A stretch of 64,000 nucleotides of DNA, taken from an uncultured Prevotellaceae bacterium (GTDB lineage Bacteria; Bacteroidota; Bacteroidia; Bacteroidales; Bacteroidaceae). The notes below the pieces were generated by a model. It was not told the DNA's origin. It did not search any database and saw only the letters and a program-made list of their open reading frames with translations. Positions within the stretch are counted from its first letter, which is position 1; every line of letters begins with the position of its first letter. Positions 1 to 31,300 of this stretch are shown here, one piece after another. Both the position numbers and the translations under genes were made by a program. The stretch is taken from contig ONCQ01000003.1 in assembly GCA_900316355.1 (NCBI GenBank), positions 6,113-70,112 of the forward strand, read 5' to 3'.

Positions 1-769
1 CAACGGCGAGGAGTTCATGCAGAAGTACGACAAGCGCCTCTCGCTGGCACCCCGCGACATCGTGGCCCGCGCCATCGACAAGGAGATGAAGATCCACGGC
101 ATCGACCACGTCTGCCTCGACGTCACCCATAAAGACCCCGAGGAGACCAAGCACCACTTCCCTAACATCTACGCCAAGTGCCTCAGCATCGGCATCGATA
201 TTACGAAGCAATACATCCCTGTGGTGCCCTGTGCCCACTACATGTGCGGCGGCATCAAGGTGGACTTGAACGGCGAGAGCACCATCCACCGCCTCTATGC
301 CGTCGGCGAGTGCTCCTGCACGGGTCTGCACGGCGGCAACCGCCTCGCCTCGAACTCCCTCATCGAAGCCGTCGTCTATGCCGACAAGGCCGCAGAACAC
401 AGCATCGCGCACATCGATGACTACCAGTTCAACACGCAGGTGCCCGAGTGGAACGACGAGGGCACGCTGACCAACGAGGAGAAAGTGCTCATCGCCCAGG
501 ACATGAAGGAGGTGGGACAGATCATGTCCAACTATGTGGGCATTGTGCGCAGCGACCTGCGCCTGCATCGCGCCTGGACGCGTCTGGACATCATCTATGA
601 GGAGACGGAGGAACTGTTCAAGCGCGTGAAAGCCTCCAAGGACATCTGCGAGCTCCGCAACATGGTCAATGTCGGCTATCTCATTACACGTCAGGCCATC
701 GAGCGCAAGGAAAGCCGTGGTCTCCACTACACCGTCGATTACCCCAAGCACGCCTACGACCAGAAGTAA
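1..769 (+). CDS. nadB: L-aspartate oxidase, C-terminal part; the gene starts upstream of the window
   Basis: The ORF runs in frame from position 2. The conserved stretch RLYAVGECSCTGLHGGNRLASNSLIEAVVYA matches NadB and the fumarate-reductase flavoprotein family. Confidence 0.8.
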   Translation, partial: NGEEFMQKYDKRLSLAPRDIVARAIDKEMKIHGIDHVCLDVTHKDPEETKHHFPNIYAKCLSIGIDITKQYIPVVPCAHYMCGGIKVDLNGESTIHRLYAVGECSCTGLHGGNRLASNSLIEAVVYADKAAEHSIAHIDDYQFNTQVPEWNDEGTLTNEEKVLIAQDMKEVGQIMSNYVGIVRSDLRLHRAWTRLDIIYEETEELFKRVKASKDICELRNMVNVGYLITRQAIERKESRGLHYTVDYPKHAYDQK

Positions 770-788
770 CCCCCTCCCCAATTATACA

Positions 789-819
789 TTTCTTAACACA
801 TTTCATGCGCACACCGCAC
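789..819 (+). repeat. Copy 1 of a conserved ~30-bp motif, TTTCTTAACA(c/a)(a/t)TTTCATGCGCACACCGC
   Basis: Seen directly in the sequence. It sits 18 nt downstream of the minus-strand Fic stop codon, between convergent genes. Confidence 0.7.
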
Positions 820-836
820 GGCCATTGACGATAGAT

Positions 837-1646
837 TTAGAAGAGGAACAGACCGAGGTGGGTGTTGTTGCGTTTCTGCGCGAGTTCACTCTCCATCCGC
901 TCTATGGCGACACGGAAGAAGAAGGAGATGAGGTATTCATCGGTGCCTTCGGTGCGCTTTTGGCGGAGAGCGTTGATGTATGCTTCGCGGTCTTTGATGT
1001 CTATGATAAGAATAGGATGTCCCTTATGCAAGAGTATCCAATTGGAGAGCAGACGTCCTGTGCGACCATTGCCGTCGCGGAAGGGATGAAGGTACTCAAA
1101 GAATCCGTGGAAGCGGGCTGCAACAATCATCGGATGCACATCGCGCCCGAGGGCATCTGCCGTGGATGCCATCAATGCGGGCACCCGGGCCACCAGCGTC
1201 TCATGATTGCCGAAAACCGTGTCGCCCGCCGCCATATCTTCCGTTGTATATGCCCCTGGTAGGGCACCTGGGGCGCGATAAGCCAATGTGTTTTCCGTTA
1301 CCAAACGGTTCGTCTCACACAGCAAGGCCTCGTCGAAAGGCGCATCCAAATGCGTGGTCACATAGCGGAAGGCACGGAAATGGTCGGCCATCTCCGTACA
1401 TTCCAGCAGGGAATGTCCCACGGGAACCATCGCCAAACCCTGTTCTTTCAGGATACGCGTGTCGTCAATAGTGAACGAATTGCCCTCGATGGCACATGAG
1501 TGGGTGGAGAATAGCACCTCGTGCCAGTCCATGTAGTCGGCTGGTGCCATCCTTTTGACGATACGTTCTTCATACTCGCATCGTACCTGCTCATAATGCT
1601 TTATTTCCTGTTCAAACATTGCCTTTCGAAGCTCATTGAATGACAA
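837..1646 (-). CDS. Fic/DOC family protein, a putative AMPylase with an N-terminal inhibitory helix
   Basis: Canonical Fic motif HPFRDGNGRTGR. An upstream SxxxEG inhibitory motif (SCAIEG) is also present. Confidence 0.85.
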   Translation of the reverse strand: MSFNELRKAMFEQEIKHYEQVRCEYEERIVKRMAPADYMDWHEVLFSTHSCAIEGNSFTIDDTRILKEQGLAMVPVGHSLLECTEMADHFRAFRYVTTHLDAPFDEALLCETNRLVTENTLAYRAPGALPGAYTTEDMAAGDTVFGNHETLVARVPALMASTADALGRDVHPMIVAARFHGFFEYLHPFRDGNGRTGRLLSNWILLHKGHPILIIDIKDREAYINALRQKRTEGTDEYLISFFFRVAIERMESELAQKRNNTHLGLFLF

Positions 1647-1998
1647 AAGTACGGTTTATTTCTGGACCGACAAAGGAAATTCGGTAATTTTTCGCATCCT
1701 GCCGCAAAAAGCACCTCCGAGAGGCGGTGGAGAGGCGTTGAGGATTTCAGCTCCGGCCGCTCAGGGATGATTGATATGTACCAAAAAAGTAGGAATGTTT
1801 CTTGAATCAGCCAAAAGAATCAAAGGAATTTAGTTGTTAGGCTACAAAAATAAGTTTCACATTTGGCCATATCTGCATCTGTTTTTATCGTGTAATTCCC
1901 GTCACGGAAAGTCCGTCATGGAACTTACACGATGCAAAGATACCGTGTTTCGTGAAAGGCAAGAACAGAAAAGTGAAAAACCACCTCAAATAACAACA

Positions 1999-2027
1999 TT
2001 TCTTAACAATTTTCATGCGCACACCGC
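1999..2027 (+). repeat. Copy 2 of the 30-bp motif
   Basis: Near-identical to copy 1. It lies 35 nt past the stop of the minus-strand anti-sigma gene. Confidence 0.7.
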
Positions 2028-2061
2028 TGGTACATCGCGCAAACTAATGGATGATAATGAC

Positions 2062-2466
2062 TTAATTGTAGATCATTTGCTTTTCCCTCATCAACATGAT
2101 GTCCTGAACGTTGGCGATGATGCTGGCGAGACCGAGACTCATCAACAGGGCGAGGGCTGCTGTAGTGATGAAGCGAGAATTTGCTAGTAGCCACAGCAGG
2201 ATATCGTTGTGCACCTCAAAGGTGAAGAGGGGAACATCGGCAGGCATCGAAAGCACAAAAGCGATGGTGATAGCACCGCTGATGATACCCACGACAAATG
2301 CTGCAACCGTAGCCATCTTATAGCGGCGGATGGTGGCTTCCTGATGCTGCTTGATATATTCCACAACATCCAGACGCTTGGTGAGGCTGGCCATGAAGTC
2401 GGCACTGTCTTCGAAATGTGGCGCCTGTGCGAGGAAGAGTTCCTCAAGGGCTTTATCTTTTGTCAT
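2062..2466 (-). CDS. Putative anti-sigma factor; membrane protein co-transcribed with the ECF sigma gene
   Basis: ATGA start/stop overlap with the upstream ECF sigma gene. A single central hydrophobic helix is predicted. There is no homology call beyond gene context. Confidence 0.5.
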   Translation of the reverse strand: MTKDKALEELFLAQAPHFEDSADFMASLTKRLDVVEYIKQHQEATIRRYKMATVAAFVVGIISGAITIAFVLSMPADVPLFTFEVHNDILLWLLANSRFITTAALALLMSLGLASIIANVQDIMLMREKQMIYN

Positions 2467-2939
2467 AATCGTAGTTTTTCTTTTAGTTTGTCGCGTCCCC
2501 GTGAGAGCTGTTTCTTGACAGCATCCTCCGAGGTTTCCGTGATGGAGGCAATCTCTTTGATATTATATCCGCTAAGGTAGAATAGTGTGATAGCGGAGCG
2601 TTCCTTAGGAGGAAGGGTGCGAAGGGCGAGATAGAGATCCTGATGCTCGAAAGGCGCGTCGGCAGCAGCGTTGCTGACAAGCGTTCGTGCCTCATCAATG
2701 CTTTCCGTAGTGCGCATACTCGCCTTATGGTTGAGGAACGTGTTGTGGGCAATCTTGAAGAGCCACGAGCGGAAGCGCCCCATGTCCTGATAGCCCGCCG
2801 ACGAGAGATAGGCCTTCACCAGCGTGTCCTGCGCCAGGTCATCTGCATCACTCTTGTTGCCGCAGCAGAGGGCGAGCAGGAAGCCTCTCAAAGCCTCCTG
2901 CTCACGCTCCACTTGCGTTATGAATACTACGCGTGTCAC
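2463..2939 (-). CDS. RNA polymerase ECF-type sigma-70 factor
   Basis: Sigma-70 region 2 and region 4 motifs are readable (DDLAQDTLVKAY...; ITLFYLSGYNIKEIASITETSEDAVKKQLSRGR). Confidence 0.8.
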   Translation of the reverse strand: MTRVVFITQVEREQEALRGFLLALCCGNKSDADDLAQDTLVKAYLSSAGYQDMGRFRSWLFKIAHNTFLNHKASMRTTESIDEARTLVSNAAADAPFEHQDLYLALRTLPPKERSAITLFYLSGYNIKEIASITETSEDAVKKQLSRGRDKLKEKLRL

Positions 2940-2942
2940 GGC

Positions 2943-3395
2943 TTATGCCTGTGTGGCCATTTTCTTTTCTTCTGCCTCTATCTCTTTGGCCAAAACCTTC
3001 TTGCCGACATAATAGTTGATTAGGAAAGCGATGCCGACAGGCAAAAGAAGTGCTCCGAAGAGGGTAAACGGATTGTTATTATTACCCCTGCCTGCAATAA
3101 GATAGCAACCAAAGATTGTTAATGCGAGGCCCAACAGGGTGAGGATGCCACCCCACAGCAGTTTCGTGAGCAGTTTTTCTTTCAGCAGTGTTTTTTGCGG
3201 AGCCATCTTCTTGAGTAAGTCCTCAACGTCCGTCTCGGCGTTTTTCTCGATGGCGGCCAGCACAATCTGTGTTCGTTGATTCGTCTCGTTGATTTTCTTG
3301 CGGTTATTCAGCCATACGATGATGATGGGGAGTGCAACGACACCAATGAGAAAAAAGATCTTAACGATCATTTCCGGTAGGAGATTCAAATTCAT
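2943..3395 (-). CDS. Small membrane protein upstream of the ECF sigma gene (DUF-type)
   Basis: Several predicted TM helices. Its stop lies 3 nt before the sigma start codon, in the same operon. Confidence 0.5.
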   Translation of the reverse strand: MNLNLLPEMIVKIFFLIGVVALPIIIVWLNNRKKINETNQRTQIVLAAIEKNAETDVEDLLKKMAPQKTLLKEKLLTKLLWGGILTLLGLALTIFGCYLIAGRGNNNNPFTLFGALLLPVGIAFLINYYVGKKVLAKEIEAEEKKMATQA

Positions 3396-3505
3396 AATCT
3401 TGTTTTTATTATAGGGTTAAACTTTTGTTTCTTTCTTGAACCGATTCACTTATATAACAGTTCAAGAACGCAAAAGGTGACATACCATAACAAAAAAGTT
3501 ACATC

Positions 3506-3832
3506 CTACTTGTAGTCTGGCTCCCACAGGTGGCGGTTCATGTCCACATGGCCGTTGGGTTTGAAGTGGACGCCCTCCTTCTCCAATAACGTGCGGTGCT
3601 CCAGCCAACCGGGCGCTGTGCGACCTGCGGCGTTGACCACGCGATGACAGGGCAGGCGCTCAGCGCCAGGCGTATAGCGCAATGTCCGCCCCACCAGCCG
3701 TGCGTGACTCGGCCATCCCGCCAATGTGGCGATGAGTCCATAGGTCGTCACACGTCCGCGAGGTATCTGCCCGACGATGTTGAGCACATCATCATGGAAA
3801 GCCCGCGCCTGCTCTGGCGACATCTTATGCAT
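3506..3832 (-). CDS. MGMT-family protein; DNA-binding/active-site domain of methylated-DNA-protein-cysteine methyltransferase
   Basis: Active-site PCHRVV motif. The first Met of the ORF precedes the conserved region by 46 codons, so I start the CDS at the internal Met (MHKMSPEQ). Confidence 0.7.
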   Translation of the reverse strand: MHKMSPEQARAFHDDVLNIVGQIPRGRVTTYGLIATLAGWPSHARLVGRTLRYTPGAERLPCHRVVNAAGRTAPGWLEHRTLLEKEGVHFKPNGHVDMNRHLWEPDYK

Positions 3833-3857
3833 TGAGGATTTGGTTATATGCTTGGCG

Positions 3858-4799
3858 TTACAGCTCCACGGCGGGCCAACCGTAGTCCTGATAGTAGCGG
3901 ACGGGGAGGTTGTGCTGTTGCACGTACTCCTGAAGCTGCTCCTTGCGGACGGCTTCGCGGACATTCTCATTGGAGTGCATGTTCTGGAACACGTCGAAGT
4001 GCTCGCCGAAGATGCGCTGGGCGGTGGGCAGGAAGCGTGAGCCGTCCTCCACGCGCTCGAAGCCTGTCACGGCGAAGCGCCCATCCTTCTCGGACAACGT
4101 CATGAGGCCGGGATGGCTGCCGCCCGATACGGTCTTCAGCGTATCGCCAGCCTGATCATACCAGAACACCCAGAAGTCGCCCCACACACGCATCGGCTGG
4201 CTGTCGTCGTCCTCAGCTGCTATCATCAGCATCGGGATGCATAGCTCGCCCTGCAGGTATTGTGCCCCAATCTCGCAAACCATGTAAGCGCTGATGGCAG
4301 CACGAACGGCCTGCTCGCGGCGGTTGATGGCGATATGACGGAGGCAGTCTGCCTTGTGCTCGTCGAAATCCGACATCAGCCACTGCCCGTCCACACATTC
4401 CATATACAGGCGATGCTCTTCAGCTTCGCTCTCCGAATCCAAGGAACCGTCTTCCCATTTCTGTCGCACCATCACGGTAGCCACCGCGTGCGTCTCGTCC
4501 GTCTGCTGTACGCCCACGACCTCATAGTCCGCAATCGTACCGCCGTTGCCGGTCACGAAATAGTAGAGCCATTCGTGGTCCATAGCCTCGTGCTCCGGCA
4601 GGTGGAACAGCGTGTCGAGGACGGCATAGAAGTCCGCCGTCATGTAGTCTTTCGACTGCTCCAGCAGCTCATGATCCGGGATGTACTGGCATAACTCCGC
4701 TGCGCGCTGGCGCAGACGTTCCCCCTGACTGACACACCCCGCCAGCAACAATCCCAGGCAAAGAAGTGCCGTAGAAAAAAGAATCTTGTACTTACTCAT
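3858..4799 (-). CDS. Hypothetical lipoprotein
   Basis: Signal peptide with an LLAGC lipobox. A TAATTTTG -7 box lies about 45 nt upstream of the start. Confidence 0.6.
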   Translation of the reverse strand: MSKYKILFSTALLCLGLLLAGCVSQGERLRQRAAELCQYIPDHELLEQSKDYMTADFYAVLDTLFHLPEHEAMDHEWLYYFVTGNGGTIADYEVVGVQQTDETHAVATVMVRQKWEDGSLDSESEAEEHRLYMECVDGQWLMSDFDEHKADCLRHIAINRREQAVRAAISAYMVCEIGAQYLQGELCIPMLMIAAEDDDSQPMRVWGDFWVFWYDQAGDTLKTVSGGSHPGLMTLSEKDGRFAVTGFERVEDGSRFLPTAQRIFGEHFDVFQNMHSNENVREAVRKEQLQEYVQQHNLPVRYYQDYGWPAVEL

Positions 4800-4935
4800 A
4801 TTGAATTCTGTTTATCTAAATTCTGTTGATCTATTTGCCTGCAAAATTACACATTATTCCATTACGCCCGCACGAAACCTTCATTTTTTCATTGCCCACC
4901 TCTCTTTTTGAGTCACAACTCTCAGAATTTAAATA

Positions 4936-4965
4936 TTTCTTAACAATTTTCATGCGCACACCGCA
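4936..4965 (+). repeat. Copy 3 of the 30-bp motif
   Basis: Identical core TTTCTTAACAATTTTCATGCGCACACCGC. It lies just beyond the hairpin that follows the minus-strand VirE gene. Confidence 0.7.
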
Positions 4966-4978
4966 TTTTTTGTGTACA

Positions 4979-5015
4979 GGAAAGCCCGAGCGATGCTGAT
5001 GTGCTCGGGCTTTCC
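4979..5015 (-). terminator. Perfect 13-bp stem hairpin downstream of the VirE-like gene
   Basis: GGAAAGCCCGAGC-11 nt-GCTCGGGCTTTCC. There is no clear U-tract on the minus strand and a T-tract on the plus side, so the function is uncertain. Confidence 0.35.
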
Positions 5016-5043
5016 CTTGTGATGATTTCGCTACTTGTGGTGA

Positions 5044-6270
5044 TTACGCTACTTGTGATGATAATGCTGTGATGCGGGGAACGGCATAGTAGAAGCGGCC
5101 GTCGGCATCGCGAGCCATCTGGTAGCCGCGTGCGCTCAGGGCGATGCCCAGCTGCACCTTGGTGGAGTGCGTGGGCTCGATGAAGGGGTACTCCTTCGTG
5201 ACTATCTTCACCAGCGTGCTCATGGGCAGCGGTTCGCAGGGCTCGTCGGCAGCAGGCTGACGGAAGCAGACATCCACCATCTGCTCCAGGTCGTGGGTGG
5301 ACTCGTAGGGCGCATTGGCCAGCTGCAGGCTACGCGTCTCAGCCTCCGTGAGCCAGTAGCGCTCGCTGTTGCGCAGCTCGCTGAGCACCTGCGCATAGAG
5401 CTGTTCGTAGTTGACGGGCGTGAGGTTGTCGATGACGCTGCCGGCGGCAATCTCGATGCACAGGAAACGACGCGAGCCGGTGGGGTCGTGCAGGGGATGC
5501 AGGTTGTTGGTGGTTGCCACGAACGACGCGTAGCGACGGCGGTCGGCCTGCACACGTCCGTAGATGGGGCGCCCATTCACGCGAACCTTCGACAGCAACT
5601 GCTTCAGCTCTGCCTGCTGGCAGCGCCGCACCTGATCCAGCTCGTCGATGTTCACCAACAGATTGTTTGTCAGCGCCATCTCCTTGTCAAACTTGTTGCC
5701 GAGGTTCACATGGTCGAGGAAATACTCGCGCAGGTGCTCGGGCAGCAACAGCCGGCAGAAGGTGCTCTTGCCGCAGCCCTGTGCGCCGATGAGCGTGGGC
5801 ACCACCTCGTTGCCGTGCAGCGCATCCATCTGCATCCAATGCGCCACCATCGAGCGCAGCCAGATGGAGAGCCAGTAGCGCTGCTCGCTGCGGATGCCGG
5901 GCAGGCGGTCGAAGAGTGCGCCTGCGTGGTTCTTGCCATCCCACGCCGGCAGTGCCATCAGCCACTCGCGGACAGGATCGTAGTCAGGCGTCTCGCGCGA
6001 ATAGATAATGGTGGTCAGCTTCTTGCCCACGCCCTGTGCCTCCGGCATCGCCTCTTCGGTTGCGAGCGCGAGACTGTTCATGTCCTCGGCAGTCAGCGCC
6101 CGCCAGACATCTTCGCTCGCATCGCTCGCCAGACTGTCACCCTGCTCGGACGTGCAGCTGTCGCCGCCCTCATTCAGTTCACGATACTCGATTTTGCCGC
6201 TCAACAGGTTGCGGCGGAAAGCATATCCCTCCTTGAGGAACTGCTTGATGTCAGAATTTGTGATTCTCAT
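5044..6270 (-). CDS. Virulence-associated protein E (VirE) / primase C-terminal-like P-loop protein
   Basis: Walker A GAQGCGKST and overall VirE-family architecture. In Bacteroidota this family is usually tied to mobile elements. Confidence 0.75.
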   Translation of the reverse strand: MRITNSDIKQFLKEGYAFRRNLLSGKIEYRELNEGGDSCTSEQGDSLASDASEDVWRALTAEDMNSLALATEEAMPEAQGVGKKLTTIIYSRETPDYDPVREWLMALPAWDGKNHAGALFDRLPGIRSEQRYWLSIWLRSMVAHWMQMDALHGNEVVPTLIGAQGCGKSTFCRLLLPEHLREYFLDHVNLGNKFDKEMALTNNLLVNIDELDQVRRCQQAELKQLLSKVRVNGRPIYGRVQADRRRYASFVATTNNLHPLHDPTGSRRFLCIEIAAGSVIDNLTPVNYEQLYAQVLSELRNSERYWLTEAETRSLQLANAPYESTHDLEQMVDVCFRQPAADEPCEPLPMSTLVKIVTKEYPFIEPTHSTKVQLGIALSARGYQMARDADGRFYYAVPRITALSSQVA

Positions 6271-6727
6271 AATTCTTAAGATTTTTAGTTAAATAATGAA
6301 TGTGATCATTGGGGTTGAATAGCTATTCGGCTGCAAAGATATAACAAAATTTTTGCGCTGTCAAGACCCTTTCGCAGATTTCTAACTTTCAGAAACACAG
6401 CCTGTAATATCATGCTTCTCGCCTGAAGAAAAGCCTCTCCTTCCTAAGGCGTAAACTTCTTCGCCTGCTGCTCCTAACCTCTTTGCTCCTCATCGCAAAA
6501 CCCTACACTTCACGGTGTATAAATAATTTTACTCAGTGATTCCTATAACTCAACCAGTGAGCCGACCAAACCACCGAGTGATTTGTGCAACCCACTCAGT
6601 CATTTTAACAATCATTAAGGCTGCGTATTTGTTTATGTCATGGAGAAGCGATATTTTTGCAGCGTTGAAGAAAACTTATCTCCGTATGCTGCAATATTAC
6701 AAACTCGAACAGCGCGACAGCTTCGAT

Positions 6728-7384
6728 ATGAAGAAGACGCGGACAGTGTATAAACTCAAGAAGAAGGCGACGGTATCGCCTGAGGCGTTTATCCACGAAG
6801 TGGCCAAACGTCGTGGATCCAGCGAGTCGGTCATCTCGGGCGTACTGATGGACGTGGCAGATGAATTAGAGTATCTGCTGGGACAGGGCTACGGCGTCAC
6901 GCTCCCCGGCATCGGCACCTTCACGGTCGGCGTCCGCCTGAAGGAAGAGCGCAAGGAGCAGCTGGAAGAAGAGCAGGACGCTGCTGCTGAGGCTGCCGAG
7001 AGCGGAGGGAAGCCCAAGAAGGTGACGGAGCCCAATGCCCGCAACATAGAGCTCCACCACATCAACTACCGCAAGGACAAACACCTGTTCAGCAATGTGG
7101 CCTCGCGCTTGAATCGTGAGGAGAAACAGCGCATAGGAGGGCGTGAGGGCGTGCGCATCACCATCGACGATTCCTCGCAGAAGCAGCGCATTGCCGCTGC
7201 CCACGAGTTTCTGGAGACGCATTCCTTCATGCGCGTCAGCGACTATGCTGAAATCACAGGGCTGTCACGCTCCAGCGCCCAACGCGAGCTGCGCGAACTG
7301 GTGAAGTTCCAATATTCTGGCATCACCTGCCGGGGTCGGGGCAGCCATCGTGTCTTTGTGCGGTGTGCGCATGAAAAATGTTAA
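6728..7384 (+). CDS. HU-related (histone-like) DNA-binding protein, Bacteroidetes type
   Basis: N-terminus MKKTRTVYKLKKK and a GIGTFTV-type HU fold motif. The first Met of the ORF lies in an AT-rich leader, so the start was moved to the conserved Met. Confidence 0.65.
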   Translation: MKKTRTVYKLKKKATVSPEAFIHEVAKRRGSSESVISGVLMDVADELEYLLGQGYGVTLPGIGTFTVGVRLKEERKEQLEEEQDAAAEAAESGGKPKKVTEPNARNIELHHINYRKDKHLFSNVASRLNREEKQRIGGREGVRITIDDSSQKQRIAAAHEFLETHSFMRVSDYAEITGLSRSSAQRELRELVKFQYSGITCRGRGSHRVFVRCAHEKC

Positions 7385-7388
7385 TAAA
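7358..7388 (-). repeat. Copy 4 of the 30-bp motif, in inverted orientation, overlapping the HU-like stop codon
   Basis: GTGCGGTGTGCGCATGAAAAATGTTAATAAA. It encodes the last residues (VRCAHEKC*) of the HU-like gene. Confidence 0.65.
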
Positions 7389-7440
7389 TCTTTAATTTTA
7401 AAAAGTGGGGCAAAGCAGGTGGGCGTCTCGCAAGAAAATA

Positions 7441-7448
7441 GTACCTTT
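7441..7448 (+). promoter_or_regulatory. Bacteroidetes sigma-A -7 box TACCTTTG
   Basis: Matches TAnnTTTG, 26 nt upstream of the BspA-like start codon. Confidence 0.45.
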
Positions 7449-7473
7449 GCAGCGAAAAACATCATTTGAGCCT

Positions 7474-8832
7474 ATGAAAAAATCTTTTCTCACATGGTTG
7501 ATTCCTGCTATGTTGCTGGGAACTACGATATTGAGCGTCACCGCTTGTGTCAAAGAGGAGGAGAATAATCCACCCGTACAGCCGGAGCCAGGAGGCGGCG
7601 GACAGGAAGAAGATGAGGATGAGGACGAGAAAAGGGAAGTGCAGCCCTTGGATATCCGCGAGATTATTGTCACTGTGGATGAGCAGGGAAAGGCTGACGG
7701 CAACCACCGTTTCCAGAAAATCAACGAGACGAATTTCTATATCGATGACATCAAATACAGGGTCGAGGATGGCGAGCTGGTCGTGTGTGGCTGTAGCCCC
7801 TTTTTCGAAGGGGATGCCGTCATCATCTCGGCGTTGAGGTACCAGGGGAGTACGATGAAGGTGACGAAGATCACTGACGGGGCGTTCCGGGATAGTACGA
7901 TCCTGAAGACATGCATTGTCGGCACCGAGGTGACGACCATCGGAAAGCAGGCGTTCGAGAGTTGCAGCAACCTGGAGGCGGTGGCTATTCCCCGCAGTGT
8001 GAAGAGCATCGGCGGCAACGCGTTCCGCTATTGCTACGAATTGTACTCTGTTCATATCACAGACCTTTCGGCGTGGTGTAAGATTGATTTCAAGATTGAT
8101 GAAGAAATCATCTCTTACAAGTACAATTACACCACGACGAGCAATCCCCTTGCGCATGCCCACCATCTCTATCTGGATAATCAGGAGGTGACGGAGCTGA
8201 CCATTCCCAGTGATGTGACGACAATAAAACAGAATACGTTTGCCGGCTACTGGGGACTGACAGCCATTACCATTCCGGACCATGTGACGAGCATCGGCGT
8301 GCAGGCGTTTGCGCTTTGCCGCGGCCTGACCTCTGTGAATATTCCCAGCAGCGTGACGAGCATCGGGCAGTACGCCTTCTCCGGATGCGAGGGCCTGACC
8401 TCTGTGACCATCCCAAGTAACATAAGGTCCATCGACGATGCGGTGTTTGCCGGTTGCCTCCGCCTGACGTCCATCTCGATTCCGGATCGCGTGACGAGCC
8501 TCGGAAAGTTTGCGTTTTATGAATGCAGCGCCCTGACGTCTGTGACCATCCCGAACAGCGTGACGGACATCGGCGAGAAGGCTTTCCACGGTTGCCTCGG
8601 TCTGACATCGGTGACCATCGGCAGCAGCGTGACGAACATCGCCGTCAATGCCTTCTATTATTGCACTGCTCTGACGGATGTGTATTGCACTGCTGTGAAT
8701 CCGCCTTCGGCCAAGGACGCGTTCACAAATTCTCCCATTTCATCGGCCACGCTCCATGTTCCGGCTCAGTCGCTGGAGGCCTACATGGCGGCTTCTCCCT
8801 GGAGCGAATTTGGCGCCAAGGTGGCTCTTTGA
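7474..8832 (+). CDS. BspA-type leucine-rich-repeat surface protein (lipoprotein)
   Basis: Signal peptide with a TAC lipobox, an acidic linker, and tandem 23-aa LRR_5 units (IPxSVTSIGxxAFxxCxxLTSV). Confidence 0.8.
   Translation: MKKSFLTWLIPAMLLGTTILSVTACVKEEENNPPVQPEPGGGGQEEDEDEDEKREVQPLDIREIIVTVDEQGKADGNHRFQKINETNFYIDDIKYRVEDGELVVCGCSPFFEGDAVIISALRYQGSTMKVTKITDGAFRDSTILKTCIVGTEVTTIGKQAFESCSNLEAVAIPRSVKSIGGNAFRYCYELYSVHITDLSAWCKIDFKIDEEIISYKYNYTTTSNPLAHAHHLYLDNQEVTELTIPSDVTTIKQNTFAGYWGLTAITIPDHVTSIGVQAFALCRGLTSVNIPSSVTSIGQYAFSGCEGLTSVTIPSNIRSIDDAVFAGCLRLTSISIPDRVTSLGKFAFYECSALTSVTIPNSVTDIGEKAFHGCLGLTSVTIGSSVTNIAVNAFYYCTALTDVYCTAVNPPSAKDAFTNSPISSATLHVPAQSLEAYMAASPWSEFGAKVAL
8200..8650 (+). 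repeat. Tandem 69-bp coding repeats (LRR units) inside the BspA-like gene
   Basis: Repeated GCCTGACCTCTGTGA...CCCAGCAGCGTGACGAGCATCGG units are directly visible. Confidence 0.7.
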
Positions 8833-8851: not shown

Positions 8852-9412
8852 TCACCAGCTGAGTGTGCGGGTGCCGTCGGGATTGGCGGTGATGTGCACG
8901 CGGAGCGTGTCATCGGGCAGCAGGTCCTCGATGAGTTCGGGCCATTCGATGAGGCACAGGTGGCCGCTGTAGAGGTAGTCCTCGAAGCCCATGTCATAGG
9001 CCTCCTCGATGCGCTTGATGCGATAGAAATCGAAGTGATAAATAGATGAATGCTCTTTGCGTTCGTCATTGACCTTCGGTCGAGCCTGCTCACGCTCGGG
9101 AAAGTTCAAGCAAGCTTGACTCTCCTCTCGCTTAATCGCAGCCTTCGTCATTCGTAACTCATCATTCGTCATTCGTAACTTGTCATTCACAGCGTATTCG
9201 TTGACGATGGCGAAGGTGGGGGAGGTGACCGGTTCGGTGACCCCCAGTTCGCGGCAAAGGGCTGCGATGAAGGTGGTCTTGCCGGCACCCATGGTGCCGT
9301 AGAAGGCAATGATGCGGCGGTCGCCTAAATTGGCGCGGAACTCACGGGCGGCTGCATCCAGCGCGTCTTCCGTGAAGGTGATGGAGGGTTTATTTTCTGT
9401 GGGTGAGGTCAT
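8852..9412 (-). CDS. tsaE: tRNA threonylcarbamoyladenosine biosynthesis protein TsaE, carrying an in-frame ~110-bp repeat-element insertion
   Basis: P-loop GTMGAGKTTF and the HFDFYR motif. About 43 extra residues lie between VNEY and IYHFDFYR, encoded by the repeat at 9056-9190. Confidence 0.8.
   Translation of the reverse strand: MTSPTENKPSITFTEDALDAAAREFRANLGDRRIIAFYGTMGAGKTTFIAALCRELGVTEPVTSPTFAIVNEYAVNDKLRMTNDELRMTKAAIKREESQACLNFPEREQARPKVNDERKEHSSIYHFDFYRIKRIEEAYDMGFEDYLYSGHLCLIEWPELIEDLLPDDTLRVHITANPDGTRTLSW
9056..9190. repeat. Repeat element inside tsaE coding sequence: a 76-bp core plus a CATTCGTAAC-type tandem array
   Basis: The core at 9071-9146 is 76/76 identical to 31113-31188. 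It is flanked by TTCGTCATT direct repeats. Confidence 0.85.
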
Positions 9413-9508
9413 AAATCTTTAATCTTTAATCTTGTTTCAGGCGGTCTCGTAATAACGTTATATCGTCATACCGTTATCTCGAAAAGAGTCTGGCCGCCAA
9501 CTATCAAT

Positions 9509-11143
9509 TCAACCTCTCTTCCTCGGCGTGAGTTCCACCAGGGGAATCAGCATTTCCTCCATGGAGATGCCGCCGTGCTGGAAGGTGTCGCGGTAGTAGG
9601 AGACGTAGTAGTTGTAGTTGTTGGGGTAGGCGAAGAAGCTGTCTCCGCGGGCGAAGATGTAGCGCGTGGATAGGTTGGGGGAGGGCAGCAGCGCGCGCTG
9701 GGGATTAGTGATCTCGAAGACTTCCTTGGGGTTGTAGTCGAGGTTCTTGCCGAGCTTGTAGCGCAGGTTGGTGTTGGTGTTCTTGTCGCCCTTGACACGC
9801 ACGGGGGACTGACAGCGGATACTGCCGTGGTCGGTGGTCAGGATGATGCGGTAGTCGGAGGTGGCGAGGGCGCGGAAGAGGTCTGCGACGGCGCTGTGGC
9901 GGAACCAGCTGAGGGTGATGCTGCGGTAGGCGGCCTCGTTGCTGGCCAGCTCGCGCACCATGCGGCTCTCTGTGCGAGCGTGGCTGAGCATGTCGATGAA
10001 GTTGAGGACGCAGACATTGACATCGTATTTCTCCATCTGCGGCAACTTCTGCACGAGGCGCTCGGCGGCAGCAGAGTCGTTGACCTTGTTGTAGGTGAAG
10101 GTGTGTTGGCGGCGGTAGCGCTTGAAGAGGGTCTGTATGAGAGGCGCCTCGTTGAGGTTCTTGCCCTCCTCGCTGTCCTCATCGACCCAAAGGTCAGGGA
10201 ACATCTCGGCGATGATGTTAGGCATGAGGCCCGAGAAGATGGCGTTGCGCGCATACTGCGTGGCAGTGGGCAGGATAGAGCAGTAGAGAGCCTCGTCGAT
10301 ATGGAAGAGGTCGGCAATCTCGTTCATGAGGATGCGCCACTGGTCGTAGCGGAAGTTGTCGATGACGATGAGGAACACCTTCTCGCCGCTGTCCAGGAGG
10401 GGGAAGACGCGGCGCTTGAAGATGTCGGGGCTCATGATGGGCGGGCGCCCGGGCATCTCGGCATCGTTGATCCAGTCGAGGTAGTTACGCTCGATGAAGC
10501 GGGAGAACTGGTGGTTGGCCTCCTGCTTCTGCATGGCCAGCATCTCCTTCATGCCGCTGTCGGTCTCGGAGAGCTGCAGCTCCCAGGCCACGAGGCGGCG
10601 ATAGACCTCCATCCAGTCCTCGATGCTGCGGGCCTCGTCGATGAGCATGCCCATCTTGCCGAAGTCCTGCTGGTAGGCGGTCTGTGTCTGTTCGGTGACG
10701 ATTTCGCGCTGATGGATGTTCTTCTTCAGCGAGAGCAGTATCTGCGTGGGGTTGACGGGTTTGATGAGGTAGTCGGCAATCTTGCTGCCTATGGCCTGAT
10801 CCATGATGTTCTCCTCCTCGCTCTTGGTGACCATCACCACGGGTGTGGTGGGCGTCACCTCCTTGATGCGCTGCAGTGTCTCGAGTCCGCTGAGGCCGGG
10901 CATGTTCTCATCGAGGAGGATGAGGTCGTAGGTCTTCTCGCGGCAGCGGTCGATGGCGTCGAAGCCATTGGTGACGGTATCGACGGCATAGCCCTTCTTT
11001 TCCAGAAAGAGGATATGAGCCTTCAGCAGCTCTATCTCATCGTCGATCCAAAGTAAAGAAGCTATGGCAGACCCGGCAGACCCACCCCCGACCCCTCCCG
11101 TGAGGGAGGGGAGAGGCTGGCGCGATGTAGTTTTATTGGACAT
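9509..11143 (-). CDS. porX: Type IX secretion response regulator PorX (CheY receiver plus PglZ/alkaline-phosphatase-like domain)
   Basis: LWIDDEIELLKAHILFLEKKGY receiver N-terminus with a PglZ-like C-terminal domain. The first ~28 codons, including the ATG, are encoded by the palindromic repeat element. Confidence 0.75.
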   Translation of the reverse strand: MSNKTTSRQPLPSLTGGVGGGSAGSAIASLLWIDDEIELLKAHILFLEKKGYAVDTVTNGFDAIDRCREKTYDLILLDENMPGLSGLETLQRIKEVTPTTPVVMVTKSEEENIMDQAIGSKIADYLIKPVNPTQILLSLKKNIHQREIVTEQTQTAYQQDFGKMGMLIDEARSIEDWMEVYRRLVAWELQLSETDSGMKEMLAMQKQEANHQFSRFIERNYLDWINDAEMPGRPPIMSPDIFKRRVFPLLDSGEKVFLIVIDNFRYDQWRILMNEIADLFHIDEALYCSILPTATQYARNAIFSGLMPNIIAEMFPDLWVDEDSEEGKNLNEAPLIQTLFKRYRRQHTFTYNKVNDSAAAERLVQKLPQMEKYDVNVCVLNFIDMLSHARTESRMVRELASNEAAYRSITLSWFRHSAVADLFRALATSDYRIILTTDHGSIRCQSPVRVKGDKNTNTNLRYKLGKNLDYNPKEVFEITNPQRALLPSPNLSTRYIFARGDSFFAYPNNYNYYVSYYRDTFQHGGISMEEMLIPLVELTPRKRG

Positions 11144-11280
11144 AAGATTCTTCGTTATCTCGTTATTCCGTTATTTCGTTATCTCGTTATTTCGTTATTC
11201 CGTTATTTCGACTCCCCCTCTCCGCAGGCTCTCCCCTCCCTCACGGGAGGGGTTGGGGGTGGGTCTAATACATCCAATCT
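11064..11280. repeat. Large palindromic element: ~46-bp inverted arms (GACCCACCCCCGACCCCTCCCGTGAGGGAGGGGAG...) around a CGTTATTTCG tandem array
   Basis: The left arm (11075-11125) and right arm (11221-11268) are reverse complements. The tandem array spans 11148-11215. Confidence 0.85.
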
Positions 11281-16125: not shown

Positions 16126-16200
16126 CGGGATGTAGCTCAGTCCGGTTAGAGTACGCGTCTGGGGGGCGTGGGGTCGCTAGTTCGAATCTAGTCATCCCGA
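16126..16200 (+). tRNA. tRNA-Pro (anticodon GGG)
   Basis: Folded by hand. Acceptor CGGGATG/CATCCCG, D-arm GCTC...GAGT, anticodon loop CTGGGGG, T-arm GCTAG-TTCGAAT-CTAGT, discriminator A. No CCA is encoded. Confidence 0.85.
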
Positions 16201-31019: not shown

Positions 31020-31300
31020 TGTTGGCTTTTGGCTTTTGGCTTTTGGCCTTTGGCACTCATCATTAGTAATTTTTATTTTTCACTTATCACTTATCACTCA
31101 TCACTCATCATTGACCTTCGGTCGAGCCTGCTCACGCTCGGGAAAGTTCAAGCAAGCTTGACTCTCCTCTCGCTTAATCGCAGCCTTCATCACTCGTCAT
31201 TCGTCATTCATCATTATTATTTTTCACTTTTCCCTCCCTACGCTCCCCTTTAGGGGGCTCGGGGGCATTTGAACTCTTGAACTCTTGAACTTTTTGAACT
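31020..31300. repeat. Composite repeat cluster: GGCTTTTGGC and CACTTATCA tandem arrays, the 76-bp core identical to the tsaE insert, an inverted PPSPLKG core, and a TTGAACTCTTGAAC array
   Basis: Direct reading. 31113-31188 equals 9071-9146. 31230-31270 is the reverse complement of the 25342 core. Confidence 0.85.

Follow-up and report, generated by a model that had tools for sequence, protein, structure and literature searches.

A repeat-bounded helicase and HU-HIG gene pair within a strain-variable cargo array of an uncultured Prevotellaceae bacterium

Many variable or defense-type regions of bacterial chromosomes lack recognizable mobility genes, and the route by which their genes turn over is an open question. 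Such a region lies in the DNA analyzed here, a stretch of 64,000 nucleotides (nt) from an uncultured Prevotellaceae bacterium (contig ONCQ01000003.1 of assembly GCA_900316355.1, positions 6,113 to 70,112; hereafter, the window). The original prediction, made from the sequence alone, placed an accessory island at 780-7400 between nadB and a gene for a BspA-like leucine-rich repeat (LRR) protein; it listed Fic, extracytoplasmic function (ECF) sigma/anti-sigma, O6-methylguanine-DNA methyltransferase (MGMT)-like, lipoprotein, VirE-like, and HU-like genes as accessory cargo, and considered a decayed or unconventional element or a cassette-like insertion hotspot. All of the listed genes are present by open reading frame (ORF) and profile searches. 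However, the VirE-like (below, VapE-like) and HU-like genes are not cargo, but form a conserved, repeat-bounded core that recurs in at least eight other lineages. We propose, with a probability of roughly 40%, that the region from 780 to ~8800 is a variable cargo array around this core, in which the repeats would be both binding sites of the core proteins and junctions of cargo exchange.

The repeat occurs four times in the window (M1 to M4; Table 1), where none is expected from shuffles; all four copies lie within the island, and the remaining 57 kb contain none. The 30-bp segmenting motif of the original prediction is thus real, but its length is 37-40 nt (consensus, AAATATTTCTTAACAAnTTTCATGCGCACACCGCA). 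The motif proper is matched at 782-818, 1992-2028, and 4929-4965 on the forward strand and at 7358-7398 on the reverse strand. Each window copy combines an outer AT-rich box (AAATATTTCTTAACAAnTTTCAT) with inner tandem 7-nt units (GCGCACA CCGCAC), and the copies are laid out as M1>, M2>, M3>, the VapE and HU genes, and <M4. M3 and M4 form a 40-nt inverted pair that is 90% complementary (M4 part 7359-7398) and encloses only the divergent VapE and HU-HIG genes and their control region, making a core of 2.47 kb (4926-7398). One pair of tandem units with its AT-rich box lies 79 nt 3' of the VapE gene; the mirror half lies past the HU gene, whose final 8 sense codons and stop codon fall within M4. 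M1 and M2 are oriented like M3 and delimit two cargo blocks, one with the Fic gene and the other with the ECF operon and the MGMT-like and lipoprotein genes. The outermost copies (780-819 and 7358-7397) also form a 40-nt inverted pair, 88% complementary, with which the predicted limits of 780 and 7400 coincide, although the variable region itself continues through the BspA gene to ~8800.

The VapE-like protein resembles the Rep helicase of the Staphylococcus aureus pathogenicity island (SaPI) SaPI1. Its sequence matches SaPI1 Rep (PDB 7PDS) with an E-value of 9e-11, and 7PDS is also the best Foldseek match, over the full length (E 1e-9), of its AlphaFold (AF2) model, which was built on 22 homologues and has a mean predicted local distance difference test score (pLDDT) of 72.7. 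The next matches of the model are the primase-helicases of NrS-1, African swine fever virus (ASFV), and monkeypox virus (MPXV), and the PHROG match is helicase/primase. An N-terminal domain and a superfamily 3 (SF3)-like ATPase are followed by ~80 C-terminal residues (DUF3874) with a predicted helix-helix-helix-strand-strand order (pLDDT 84-91), as in a winged helix. These matches suggest a self-loading helicase of the SaPI-Rep type. SaPI Reps are self-loading helicases and initiators whose C-terminal winged helix reads 5-6-nt iterons; directly 3' of rep is the SaPI origin, in which iterons of opposite orientation surround an AT-rich region (PMC9371898). The HU-HIG protein matches PF18291 (E 4e-14) in residues 4-90 of 231, so that it has a C-terminal extension, and there is a weak helix-turn-helix match at residues 177-207. 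HU-HIG proteins constitute a fast-diversifying expansion in Bacteroidota, for which a role against invasive DNA or at its interface has been proposed (PMC5499826). In the core proteins, neither profile searches nor Foldseek detected a recombinase domain of the DDE, HUH, tyrosine, or serine type.

The AT-rich control region with CAGTGA repeats that had been described between the two core genes is borne out by a GC content of 0.40 in the intergenic region and by four phased 11-nt repeats (Table 1), which are candidates for an operator or an origin. At the other end of the VapE gene, three tandem 18-nt units (CTTGTGATGATTTCGCTA; window 5016-5069) run across the stop codon; they encode the last residues of the protein (...ITALSSQVA), which are missing from its homologues.

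The same anatomy recurs elsewhere. Counting that of the window, there are nine independent cores, and the other eight lie at different chromosomal sites beside different housekeeping genes. They were found through homologues of VapE and not through the motif, except for those at loci L015 and L020, which came from a motif scan of metagenomes that yielded 49 contigs. All nine cores are flanked by inverted repeats of 37-55 nt that are 89-100% complementary between the ends and share one build, AT-rich on the outside with two tandem units of 7-9 nt on the inside. The VapE stop codon is followed by one repeat at a distance of 47-146 nt in every core, and, wherever an HU gene is called, its stop codon is followed by the second repeat at 0-172 nt. 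The helicases of the nine lineages differ by up to 45% in amino acid sequence, and the unit sequence differs between helicase lineages (Table 1), with both ends of a core remaining ~90-95% alike. The HU/VapE pairs of L015 and L020 are 78-88% identical in amino acid sequence to those of the window; they are enclosed, amid unrelated neighbors (typA and tex), by inverted copies of the same motif that stand ~2.4 kb from each other. The winged helix carries ARG(Y/F) where the units contain CGCAC and AQGF where they contain ACTACA or TATACA, a weak covariation that may fit reading of the units as iterons. That intact repeats occur in at least eight other lineages argues for maintained function rather than for the decayed element that had been considered.

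Repeat-delimited cargo likewise accompanies the core of locus L075, which has five copies, with all GC-rich ends toward the core, that separate blocks consisting of a GH20 gene, an abhydrolase gene, the HU-VapE pair, rhuM, a DUF6249-ECF-anti-sigma operon, and the next gene; its ECF block is 83% identical to that of the window. The orientation of neighboring motif copies is also strongly biased, with 28 head-to-head pairs and not one tail-to-tail pair at all loci examined. Cargo beside the cores includes type I restriction-modification (R-M) genes, AbiEi/AbiEii, an AAA_15/DUF4276 pair, RhuM, Fic, and AAA_14 ATPases, and OLD-like pairs are among the defense-type genes at other loci. By profile searches, no recombinase is encoded within ~6 kb of any of the nine cores, and neither a recombinase nor Y1_Tnp is among the families that recur in 128 motif-neighboring proteins. 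An HU-HIG gene is also divergent from a VapE-domain gene in the BT4734-type (VirE) pairs of human-gut Bacteroides. However, those proteins are ~35% identical and have a primase-type N terminus fused to them, and flanking inverted repeats were absent from the human-gut Bacteroides HU/BT4734 loci and the virome scaffolds examined; therefore, the architecture belongs to the short-VapE clade and not to all HU/VirE pairs.

Several further observations were made at these cores. In L015, a perfect inverted repeat of 126 nt (10342-10467 and 12874-12999) runs well past the motif on each flank of the core and reaches the end of the stored contig. Its length is one below 127, an assumed k-mer size of the assembler, which would suggest a loop in the assembly graph; such a loop could mean that the core exists in both orientations in that population, and it is the only hint of inversion. 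In L075, a fragment of ~216 nt after the leftmost repeat copy (3709-3924) matches in inverted form, at 70% identity, the 3'-terminal part (10115-9849) of the anti-sigma-like gene that closes the array on its right, a trace of inversion or inverted duplication across the core. A 178-nt segment that lies outside the right repeat in L085 (2659-2835) is inverted within the left part of the core in L086 (257-434), which has the same VapE allele, and may be a small mobile segment or an inversion product. Two identical 77-nt tRNA-like sequences (L082, 4167-4243 and 4292-4368) lie ~1.1 kb from the left repeat of that core.

The region from 780 to ~8800, BspA gene included, is accessory and strain-variable. 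In sister species whose PorX is 92-94% identical, the EPSP synthase-PorW-PorX-tsaE block is kept, and tsaE is followed by dus, DUF5056, sigma factor, and SDR genes, with no island, nadB, or motif there; the motif is also absent from ~190 kb of sister-species DNA around PorX. Because sister species lack the island beside tsaE, the gene order is not conserved as a core genome would require, in accord with the original prediction. The housekeeping genes nadB and tsaE do flank the region, but relatives do not conserve the pairing of nadB with tsaE, and the region is therefore no simple insertion between two syntenic housekeeping genes. Among the alternatives first offered, the cassette-like insertion hotspot comes closest.

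Relatives with a DNA identity of 95-99% to the window lack either the M2-M3 block or the BspA gene. In L041 (95-98% identical), window positions 940-2027 are fused to 4931-6646 through one hybrid repeat, M2-like on its AT side and M3-like in its GC flank, and the entire 2.9-kb block between M2 and M3 is gone. In L025 (98% identical), 7403 is joined to 8801; positions 7404-8800 are gone, the BspA gene is reduced to its last 30 nt, and the outer end of M4 marks the breakpoint on the left. The more distant L020 has a Fic-type leader directly past the VapE-side repeat, and for this reason the 2.9-kb block of the window looks like an insertion next to the core. A third kind of neighbor lies outside the VapE-side repeat in L012, and L085 and L086 diverge 17 nt past the repeat, with an AbiE block in L086. 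Homology between loci typically ends at the AT-rich edge of the motif. An exact copy of TsaE is present in 23 contigs, with the same gene order in all 10 places listed, and an exact copy of VapE in 17 contigs, with the same gene order in all 7 places listed; therefore, the arrangement is fixed in the strain of the window itself.

Codon usage supports a foreign origin of the cargo, as the suggested check of GC content and codon usage bore out: GC content at third codon positions (GC3) is 0.58-0.63 in the Fic, ECF sigma, anti-sigma-like, and DUF6249 genes compared to 0.83-0.86 in nadB, porX, and porW. The GC3 of the VapE gene is native-like (0.82). The cargo blocks also have their own promoters. 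The Bacteroidota -7 promoter element is TAnnTTTG, and all seven such boxes in 700-7600 are intergenic and aimed at the Fic gene, the lipoprotein operon, VapE, HU, and BspA. Because the cargo promoters are found 45-80 nt downstream of the repeat, the motif was rejected as a Bacteroidota promoter in its own right. Promoter leaders of 70-110 nt are common to unrelated cargo genes, and the leader of the Fic gene is homologous to that of a different gene (ATPase_2/AAA_14) in L020. MGMT-like, BspA LRR, Fic, and ECF sigma genes are cargo types found beside the motif in many unrelated contigs. The M2-M3 block holds five genes (anti-sigma-like, ECF, DUF6249, MGMT-like, and lipoprotein), and one joint inside it (3396-3505) was evidently not made at a repeat: the ECF part has no upstream TAnnTTTG box, its leader is homologous to the ECF leader of L075, the repeat copy that precedes this leader in L075 is missing from the window, and the stop codon of the MGMT-like gene lies 8 nt from the start of the homology. 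The class II assignment of the Fic protein, with an intact inhibitory helix, stands: its translation, read directly, contains the active-site motif HPFRDGNGRTGR and the N-terminal inhibitory motif SCAIEG, so that HxFx(D/E)GNGRxxR and (S/T)xxxE(G/N) occur in one chain. Gene callers start it at 1619 (260 amino acids), and it also matches the PADLOC defense candidates PDC-S04 (E 6e-28) and SoFic (E 5e-24).

In the mechanism that we propose, the tandem 7-nt units would be iterons read by the C-terminal winged helix of the helicase, the AT-rich box would serve as an unwinding element, and bending or bridging of the DNA would fall to the HU-type protein. Extra repeat copies, all pointing toward the core, mark joints between cargo blocks, and recombination at a repeat, or just beyond its edge, would bring cargo in or remove it. 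This might proceed by single-crossover entry of repeat-bearing DNA, sometimes with a promoter leader of 70-110 nt, or by deletion between direct repeat copies, and neither route would require an integrase encoded in cis; each block would bring or use its own promoter past the repeat. Iterons next to an unwinding element would explain why the repeat lies just 3' of the helicase gene, why it is built in two parts, and why the ends of a core stay alike despite replacement of the sequence between helicase lineages. SF3-helicase initiators use palindromic core origins, and iterons would also explain why tight head-to-head pairs, such as that of L006 (AT-rich, GCGCACACCGCA, TTTTTG, TGCGGTGTGCGC, AT-rich), look like such origins; in this view, the two inverted half-sites of the core are similar to them as well.

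A number of points weigh against this proposal. Binding of proteins to the repeats is a prediction here, and the geometry is that of two half-sites 2.4 kb apart with their AT-rich parts outside, whereas SaPI iterons flank a single AT-rich region. As a site for the helicase or the HU protein, the phased repeats (6531-6604) are just as good a candidate. Outward transcription of cargo is true of the clade of the window but not of L082 or L088. Lone copies and short inverted pairs also lie away from visible cores, beside housekeeping genes and in either orientation, and a 1.6-kb inverted pair in L034 encloses other genes, including a zeta-toxin-like gene. The contigs of the window strain show a single arrangement in every place listed, with no inverted form of the core in the places listed for the 17 VapE and 23 TsaE contigs, and a circle junction, with AT-rich ends tail-to-tail (GCGGTGTGCGCATGAA...TTCATGCGCACACCGC), was not seen in the loci examined. 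The structural variants come from short metagenome contigs, and ordinary homologous recombination or replication slippage could yield the L041 deletion, because M2 and M3 have 30 identical bases in common. The pattern used to scan a genome collection was too strict, with TTTCAT fixed where most copies read ATTCAT; it returned only 6 metagenome-assembled genomes (MAGs) and is uninformative on copy number per genome.

Other explanations account for part of this anatomy. The motif could be the target of a site-specific recombinase encoded elsewhere, on the model of integron attC sites, Acinetobacter pdif modules, or Bacteroides global invertases, in which case the blocks would be true cassettes that this enzyme excises and inserts, and the HU/VapE pair one more module, with inverted sites around it by chance. 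Delimitation of blocks by direct repeats, precise loss of a block with a hybrid site left (L041), recurrence of the same cargo types beside the motif in unrelated contigs, and the end of homology at its AT-rich edge would all follow, and one portion of it is similar to the XerC arm of E. coli dif (TGTGCGCATGA versus GGTGCGCATAA). Nevertheless, we regard this explanation as doubtful, given the lack of recombinase genes within ~6 kb of the cores and among the recurring neighbor families, and the change of the repeat with the helicase lineage, which is unexpected for a host enzyme such as Xer. The motif also has neither the inverted-arm core of tyrosine-recombinase sites nor an attC-like hairpin; a single copy folds into a mini-stem of only 3-5 bp (-2.4 to -4.1 kcal/mol), on which an attC site was rejected. 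A dif/Xer site was rejected both on the consensus test, where copies have 7-9 mismatches in 28 and shuffles do as well 0.4-27% of the time, and on arm spacing, with the XerD-like ATGTTAA placed 1 nt, not 6 nt, from the XerC-like arm. Alternatively, the motif might be the terminal inverted repeat of a family of transposable elements, in which short pairs would resemble miniature inverted-repeat transposable elements, the core and the L034 pair with its zeta-toxin-like gene would be longer members, and solo copies would be scars. Across all loci examined, neighboring inverted copies form 28 head-to-head pairs, AT-rich ends outward, and no tail-to-tail pair; about a dozen short pairs, 8-370 nt apart, make up one homologous family, followed in places by 22-nt hairpin-repeat arrays. 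The alike ends that diverge between lineages, the different chromosomal sites of the cores in different species, and the L025 deletion that begins exactly at the outer end of a repeat, like deletions adjacent to transposase action, have the same flavor. Against transposition stand the absence of DDE, HUH, tyrosine, and serine transposase domains in or near any core, the lack of any observed empty site or second copy, and direct-repeat arrays on both sides of a core, which are atypical of simple transposition; no target-site duplication is clearly readable, because the outer ends of the repeats merge into A-runs. We consider transposition improbable.

No better in our estimate is the ordinary explanation that the motif is a lineage-specific intergenic repeat like repetitive extragenic palindromic (REP) sequences, or an operator upstream of promoters, and that the island is a patchwork of horizontally acquired genes whose variants come from RecA-dependent recombination between repeats of any kind, with no dedicated system. 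Copies beside housekeeping genes (those for IspD, AlaRS, aconitase, and others) in either orientation, their combination with the 22-nt arrays as in mosaics of the BIME (bacterial interspersed mosaic element) or NIME (Neisseria intergenic mosaic element) type, the stability of the arrangement at strain level, and repeated units that reach 116-131 nt when promoter leaders are included, long enough for homologous recombination, are as this explanation would have them. It does not foresee the lack of copies in the other 57 kb of the window and in ~190 kb of the sister species, the orientation bias of 28 to 0, or the precise flanking of all nine short-VapE cores by an inverted pair whose sequence is replaced in each lineage with the two-part build kept, which requires selection or concerted evolution tied to the core. 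Least probable of all, and by our reckoning very unlikely, is a remnant of a phage satellite such as a SaPI or another phage-inducible chromosomal island (PICI), or of another integrative element, from which the genes for integrase and packaging have disappeared. Its appeal lies in the SaPI-Rep-like helicase and in neighbors of defense or virulence type (the Fic/SoFic-like gene here; type I R-M, AbiE, RhuM, and OLD-like pairs elsewhere). However, an integrase-less layout with well-kept inverted repeats, rather than direct att repeats, is maintained in nine lineages with helicases that differ by up to 45%; codon usage of the VapE gene is native; no capsid, terminase, or repressor gene was found; and a scan of 2.9 million viral contigs for the motif gave no hit. 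A bolder form of our own proposal is a hitherto unrecognized, integrase-less gene-capture platform of rumen Prevotellaceae, in which the Rep-type helicase and the HU-HIG protein would recognize their own inverted iterons and repeat-bearing DNA would be replicated and/or recombined in, building mirror-image arrays of defense and surface-protein cargo as a functional analogue of integrons or of the staphylococcal cassette chromosome (SCC), driven by a replication initiator rather than by a recombinase. This we hold to be unlikely, if less so than transposition.

With SaPIs and other PICIs the array shares a helicase homologous in sequence and predicted fold, C-terminal winged helix included, short tandem repeats beside an AT-rich tract immediately 3' of the helicase gene, lineage-specific repeats, and peripheral accessory genes. 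Unlike them, it has no integrase, direct att repeats, primase, packaging, or repressor genes; its candidate iterons are two inverted half-sites 2.4 kb apart with AT-rich outsides; a HU-HIG gene is the partner; and extra repeat copies delimit cargo. Integrons and clusters of attC sites lacking integron-integrases (CALINs) are similar arrays of blocks separated by one repeat in one orientation, in which repeats number one more than blocks, a block can be lost precisely at repeats, and the newest-looking block adjoins the conserved platform. Here, by contrast, there is no IntI, with no integrase domain in the island or in genes within ~6 kb of the other cores; attC sites are imperfect palindromes of 57-141 nt that act as hairpins, whereas the 40-nt motif is not palindromic; integron cassettes are mostly promoterless single genes in a uniform orientation, whereas the blocks contain up to five genes and have their own promoters (the Fic, lipoprotein, and BspA boxes); and arrays extend as mirror images on both sides of the platform.

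Acinetobacter pdif modules are Xer-dependent and have 11-6-11 sites in alternating orientation. They too are discrete modules without a recombinase of their own, with short conserved sites in varied contexts, and the XerC-arm likeness points the same way. The motif has no 11-6-11 structure, however, and fits dif no better than many shuffles do; its copies within an array are direct rather than alternating, and it varies with the helicase lineage. In REPIN/RAYT systems, a single-copy Y1 transposase gene is flanked by repeats, and the Neisseria Correia and NIME sequences are intergenic repeats. The motif resembles both kinds as a lineage-specific intergenic repeat with inverted doublets, singlets, and positions at borders of variable regions, and REPIN/RAYT also in that a specific gene is flanked by inverted copies; here, in contrast, there is no Y1 (RAYT) transposase, the flanked genes encode a helicase and an HU-type protein, and the repeat is longer and has two parts. 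SCC elements move by Ccr serine recombinases into a fixed attB in rlmH and accumulate side by side, separated by repeats and with inverted repeats at their ends. They are similar in being repeat-separated cassette islands with a Rep-like helicase and terminal inverted repeats, and different in that Ccr and the rlmH attB have no counterpart here. The helicase of SCC islands, Cch, is SaPI-Rep-like (PMC9371898). A phase-variable inverton or shufflon does not match either: one core orientation is present in all places listed for the 17 VapE and 23 TsaE contigs, and no invertase gene lies near the cores.

The genes of the island were assigned from the ORF listing and from Pfam and NCBIfam profile searches (Table 1). 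These searches revealed no integrase or transposase domain in the island proteins, and the closest tRNA gene lies at 16126, 7 kb past the island, so that the absence of integrase, transposase, and tRNA target holds as first described. Packaging or interference genes and a master repressor are also absent from the island. The GC content of the window is 0.57; its close matches are rumen metagenome contigs, and protein homologues come from Prevotella sp. and Bacteroidaceae MAGs. Beyond the BspA gene lie tsaE, porX (a regulator of the type IX secretion system, T9SS), and a gene for a PorW-like tetratricopeptide repeat (TPR) protein.

Table 1. Features of the island and its flanks in the window, and repeats of the other cores
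Feature	Position	Strand	Details
nadB 3' part (L-aspartate oxidase), native flank	17-769	+	NCBIfam PRK09077 E 7e-96; GC3 0.86
M1, outermost copy	780-819	+	12 nt past nadB stop; GC-rich end faces core
Fic protein, class II, cargo	837-1646	-	Pfam Fic E 1e-16; GC3 0.62
Fic leader	1644-1942	-	three -7 boxes TAnnTTTG (1644-1651, 1845-1852, 1935-1942)
M2	1990-2028	+	34 nt past stop of anti-sigma-like gene
Membrane protein, anti-sigma position	2062-2466	-	no Pfam match; co-conserved with ECF sigma in L075, L048
ECF sigma factor	2463-2939	-	Pfam Sigma70_r2, Sigma70_r4_2
DUF6249 membrane protein, leads ECF block	2943-3395	-	Pfam E 3e-9
MGMT-family protein	3506-3835	-	109 amino acids; DNA_binding_1 domain only, PCHRV kept; Pfam E 1e-21
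Lipoprotein, unknown family	3858-4799	-	no Pfam match; LAGC lipobox in translation
-7 box TAATTTTG in lipoprotein leader	4842-4849	-	leader common to unrelated cargo genes in L075, L034, L050
M3, bounds core on VapE side	4926-4965	+	
Terminator-like hairpin 3' of VapE	4979-5015	-	folding -16.5 kcal/mol, z -6.5
VapE-like + DUF5906 + DUF3874 protein	5044-6270	-	Pfam
-7 promoter box of VapE	6334-6341	-	
Four 11-nt repeats ACnnAGTGAtT	6531-6604	+	starts 6531, 6552, 6573, 6594; exact 21-nt spacing; conserved in L015, L020, L076
-7 promoter box of HU-HIG gene	6652-6659	+	
HU-HIG DNA-binding protein	6689-7384	+	Pfam HU-HIG E 4e-14; gene callers start at 6635
M4, bounds core on HU side	7358-7398	-	
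-7 promoter box of BspA gene	7442-7449	+	
BspA-type LRR protein	7474-8832	+	Pfam LRR_5 E 3e-71
Repeat, window, L015, L020			inner units GCGCACA CCGCAC
Repeat, L075			ATTAAATATTTCTTAACAAAAAATGTCCGCACAGCGCACG; inner units CCGCACA GCGCACG
Repeat, L076			AAATATTTTTTAACGCGAATAGTCCGCACTCCGCACG; inner units CCGCACT CCGCACG
Repeat, L078			CAAATTTTAACAAAAAAAGAGCGCACCCGTCAC
Repeat, L088			AAAAAAGTTTTTTTCGAAAAAGACTACAGACTACAGGAA; inner units GACTACA GACTACA
Repeat, L082			TTTCTGAAAAGTTTGTTGCGAAACTATACACTATACAC; inner units CTATACA CTATACA
Repeat, L085/L086			55 nt, ending AAAAATCCACCGAATCCACCGATTG...; inner unit ATCCACCGA x2 (L085)

The neighborhood of the array and the distribution of its motif yielded some additional observations. 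The island adjoins T9SS regulatory genes (window 9509-14225) that encode a PorX response regulator with a PglZ domain and the PorW-like TPR protein. In other contigs, several genes beside the motif have large products, some of them BspA-type LRR proteins, with C-terminal sequences (e.g., ...NIVRMSDGTVRKIMMK) that resemble T9SS tails by eye. TsaE (window 8852-9412) has 186 amino acids compared to 137-144 in its closest relatives; its in-frame extra segment (insert at ~9062-9173) is a repeat of ~110 nt that also occurs at window 31101-31208 and in L002, so that this core gene appears to have acquired a short repeated element without a shift of its reading frame. Between porX and the PorW-like gene, the two arms of a 42-nt inverted repeat (11078-11119 and 11225-11266; 95% complementary) enclose an 8-nt tandem repeat, (TCGTTATY)n, and a related tract lies downstream of porX (9447-9481). 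At other loci (L010, 8573-8723; L021, L024, L027, L044, L052, and L054), two motif copies stand head-to-head at a distance of 54-110 nt with a hairpin between them, and after each such pair come an array of 22-nt hairpin repeats (GAAGATnTGnATCTTC) and a conserved GTTTACCAnTAGTGGTAAAC hairpin. Together, these short pairs and arrays are a composite intergenic repeat family of rumen Prevotellaceae with no Rfam match; Rfam likewise gave no match in the island (E-value mode) or in 13 motif-bearing loci. A terminator was rejected as the identity of single motif copies, as a stem is found only in paired copies (L006 and L032) or in copies of the L078 type.

In the literature that could be searched on DUF3874, HU-HIG, VirE/HU/DUF4248, and Prevotella cassettes, inverted repeats, or hotspots, no account of this architecture came up. 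Its anatomy is well supported and varies on what is known from replication modules of the satellite type and from cassette arrays delimited by repeats; the mechanism is one that we infer. A short VapE helicase, a HU-HIG protein, and two-part inverted repeats make up a small and conserved landmark, easy to recognize, of variable regions in a major rumen lineage, and differences between strains fall exactly at the repeats of this landmark. Even if the ordinary explanation holds, both repeat and core are of practical use as markers of variable cargo in Prevotellaceae metagenomes, with which Fic/SoFic-like genes, type I R-M, AbiE, RhuM, ECF modules, and BspA adhesins can be found. If the repeats are binding sites of the helicase, a replication initiator would be linked to cargo exchange, and HU-HIG proteins, a large unexplained expansion in Bacteroidota, would gain a concrete DNA partner to test. 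The repeat-separated gene blocks suggest an undescribed, integrase-less route of gene gain and loss.

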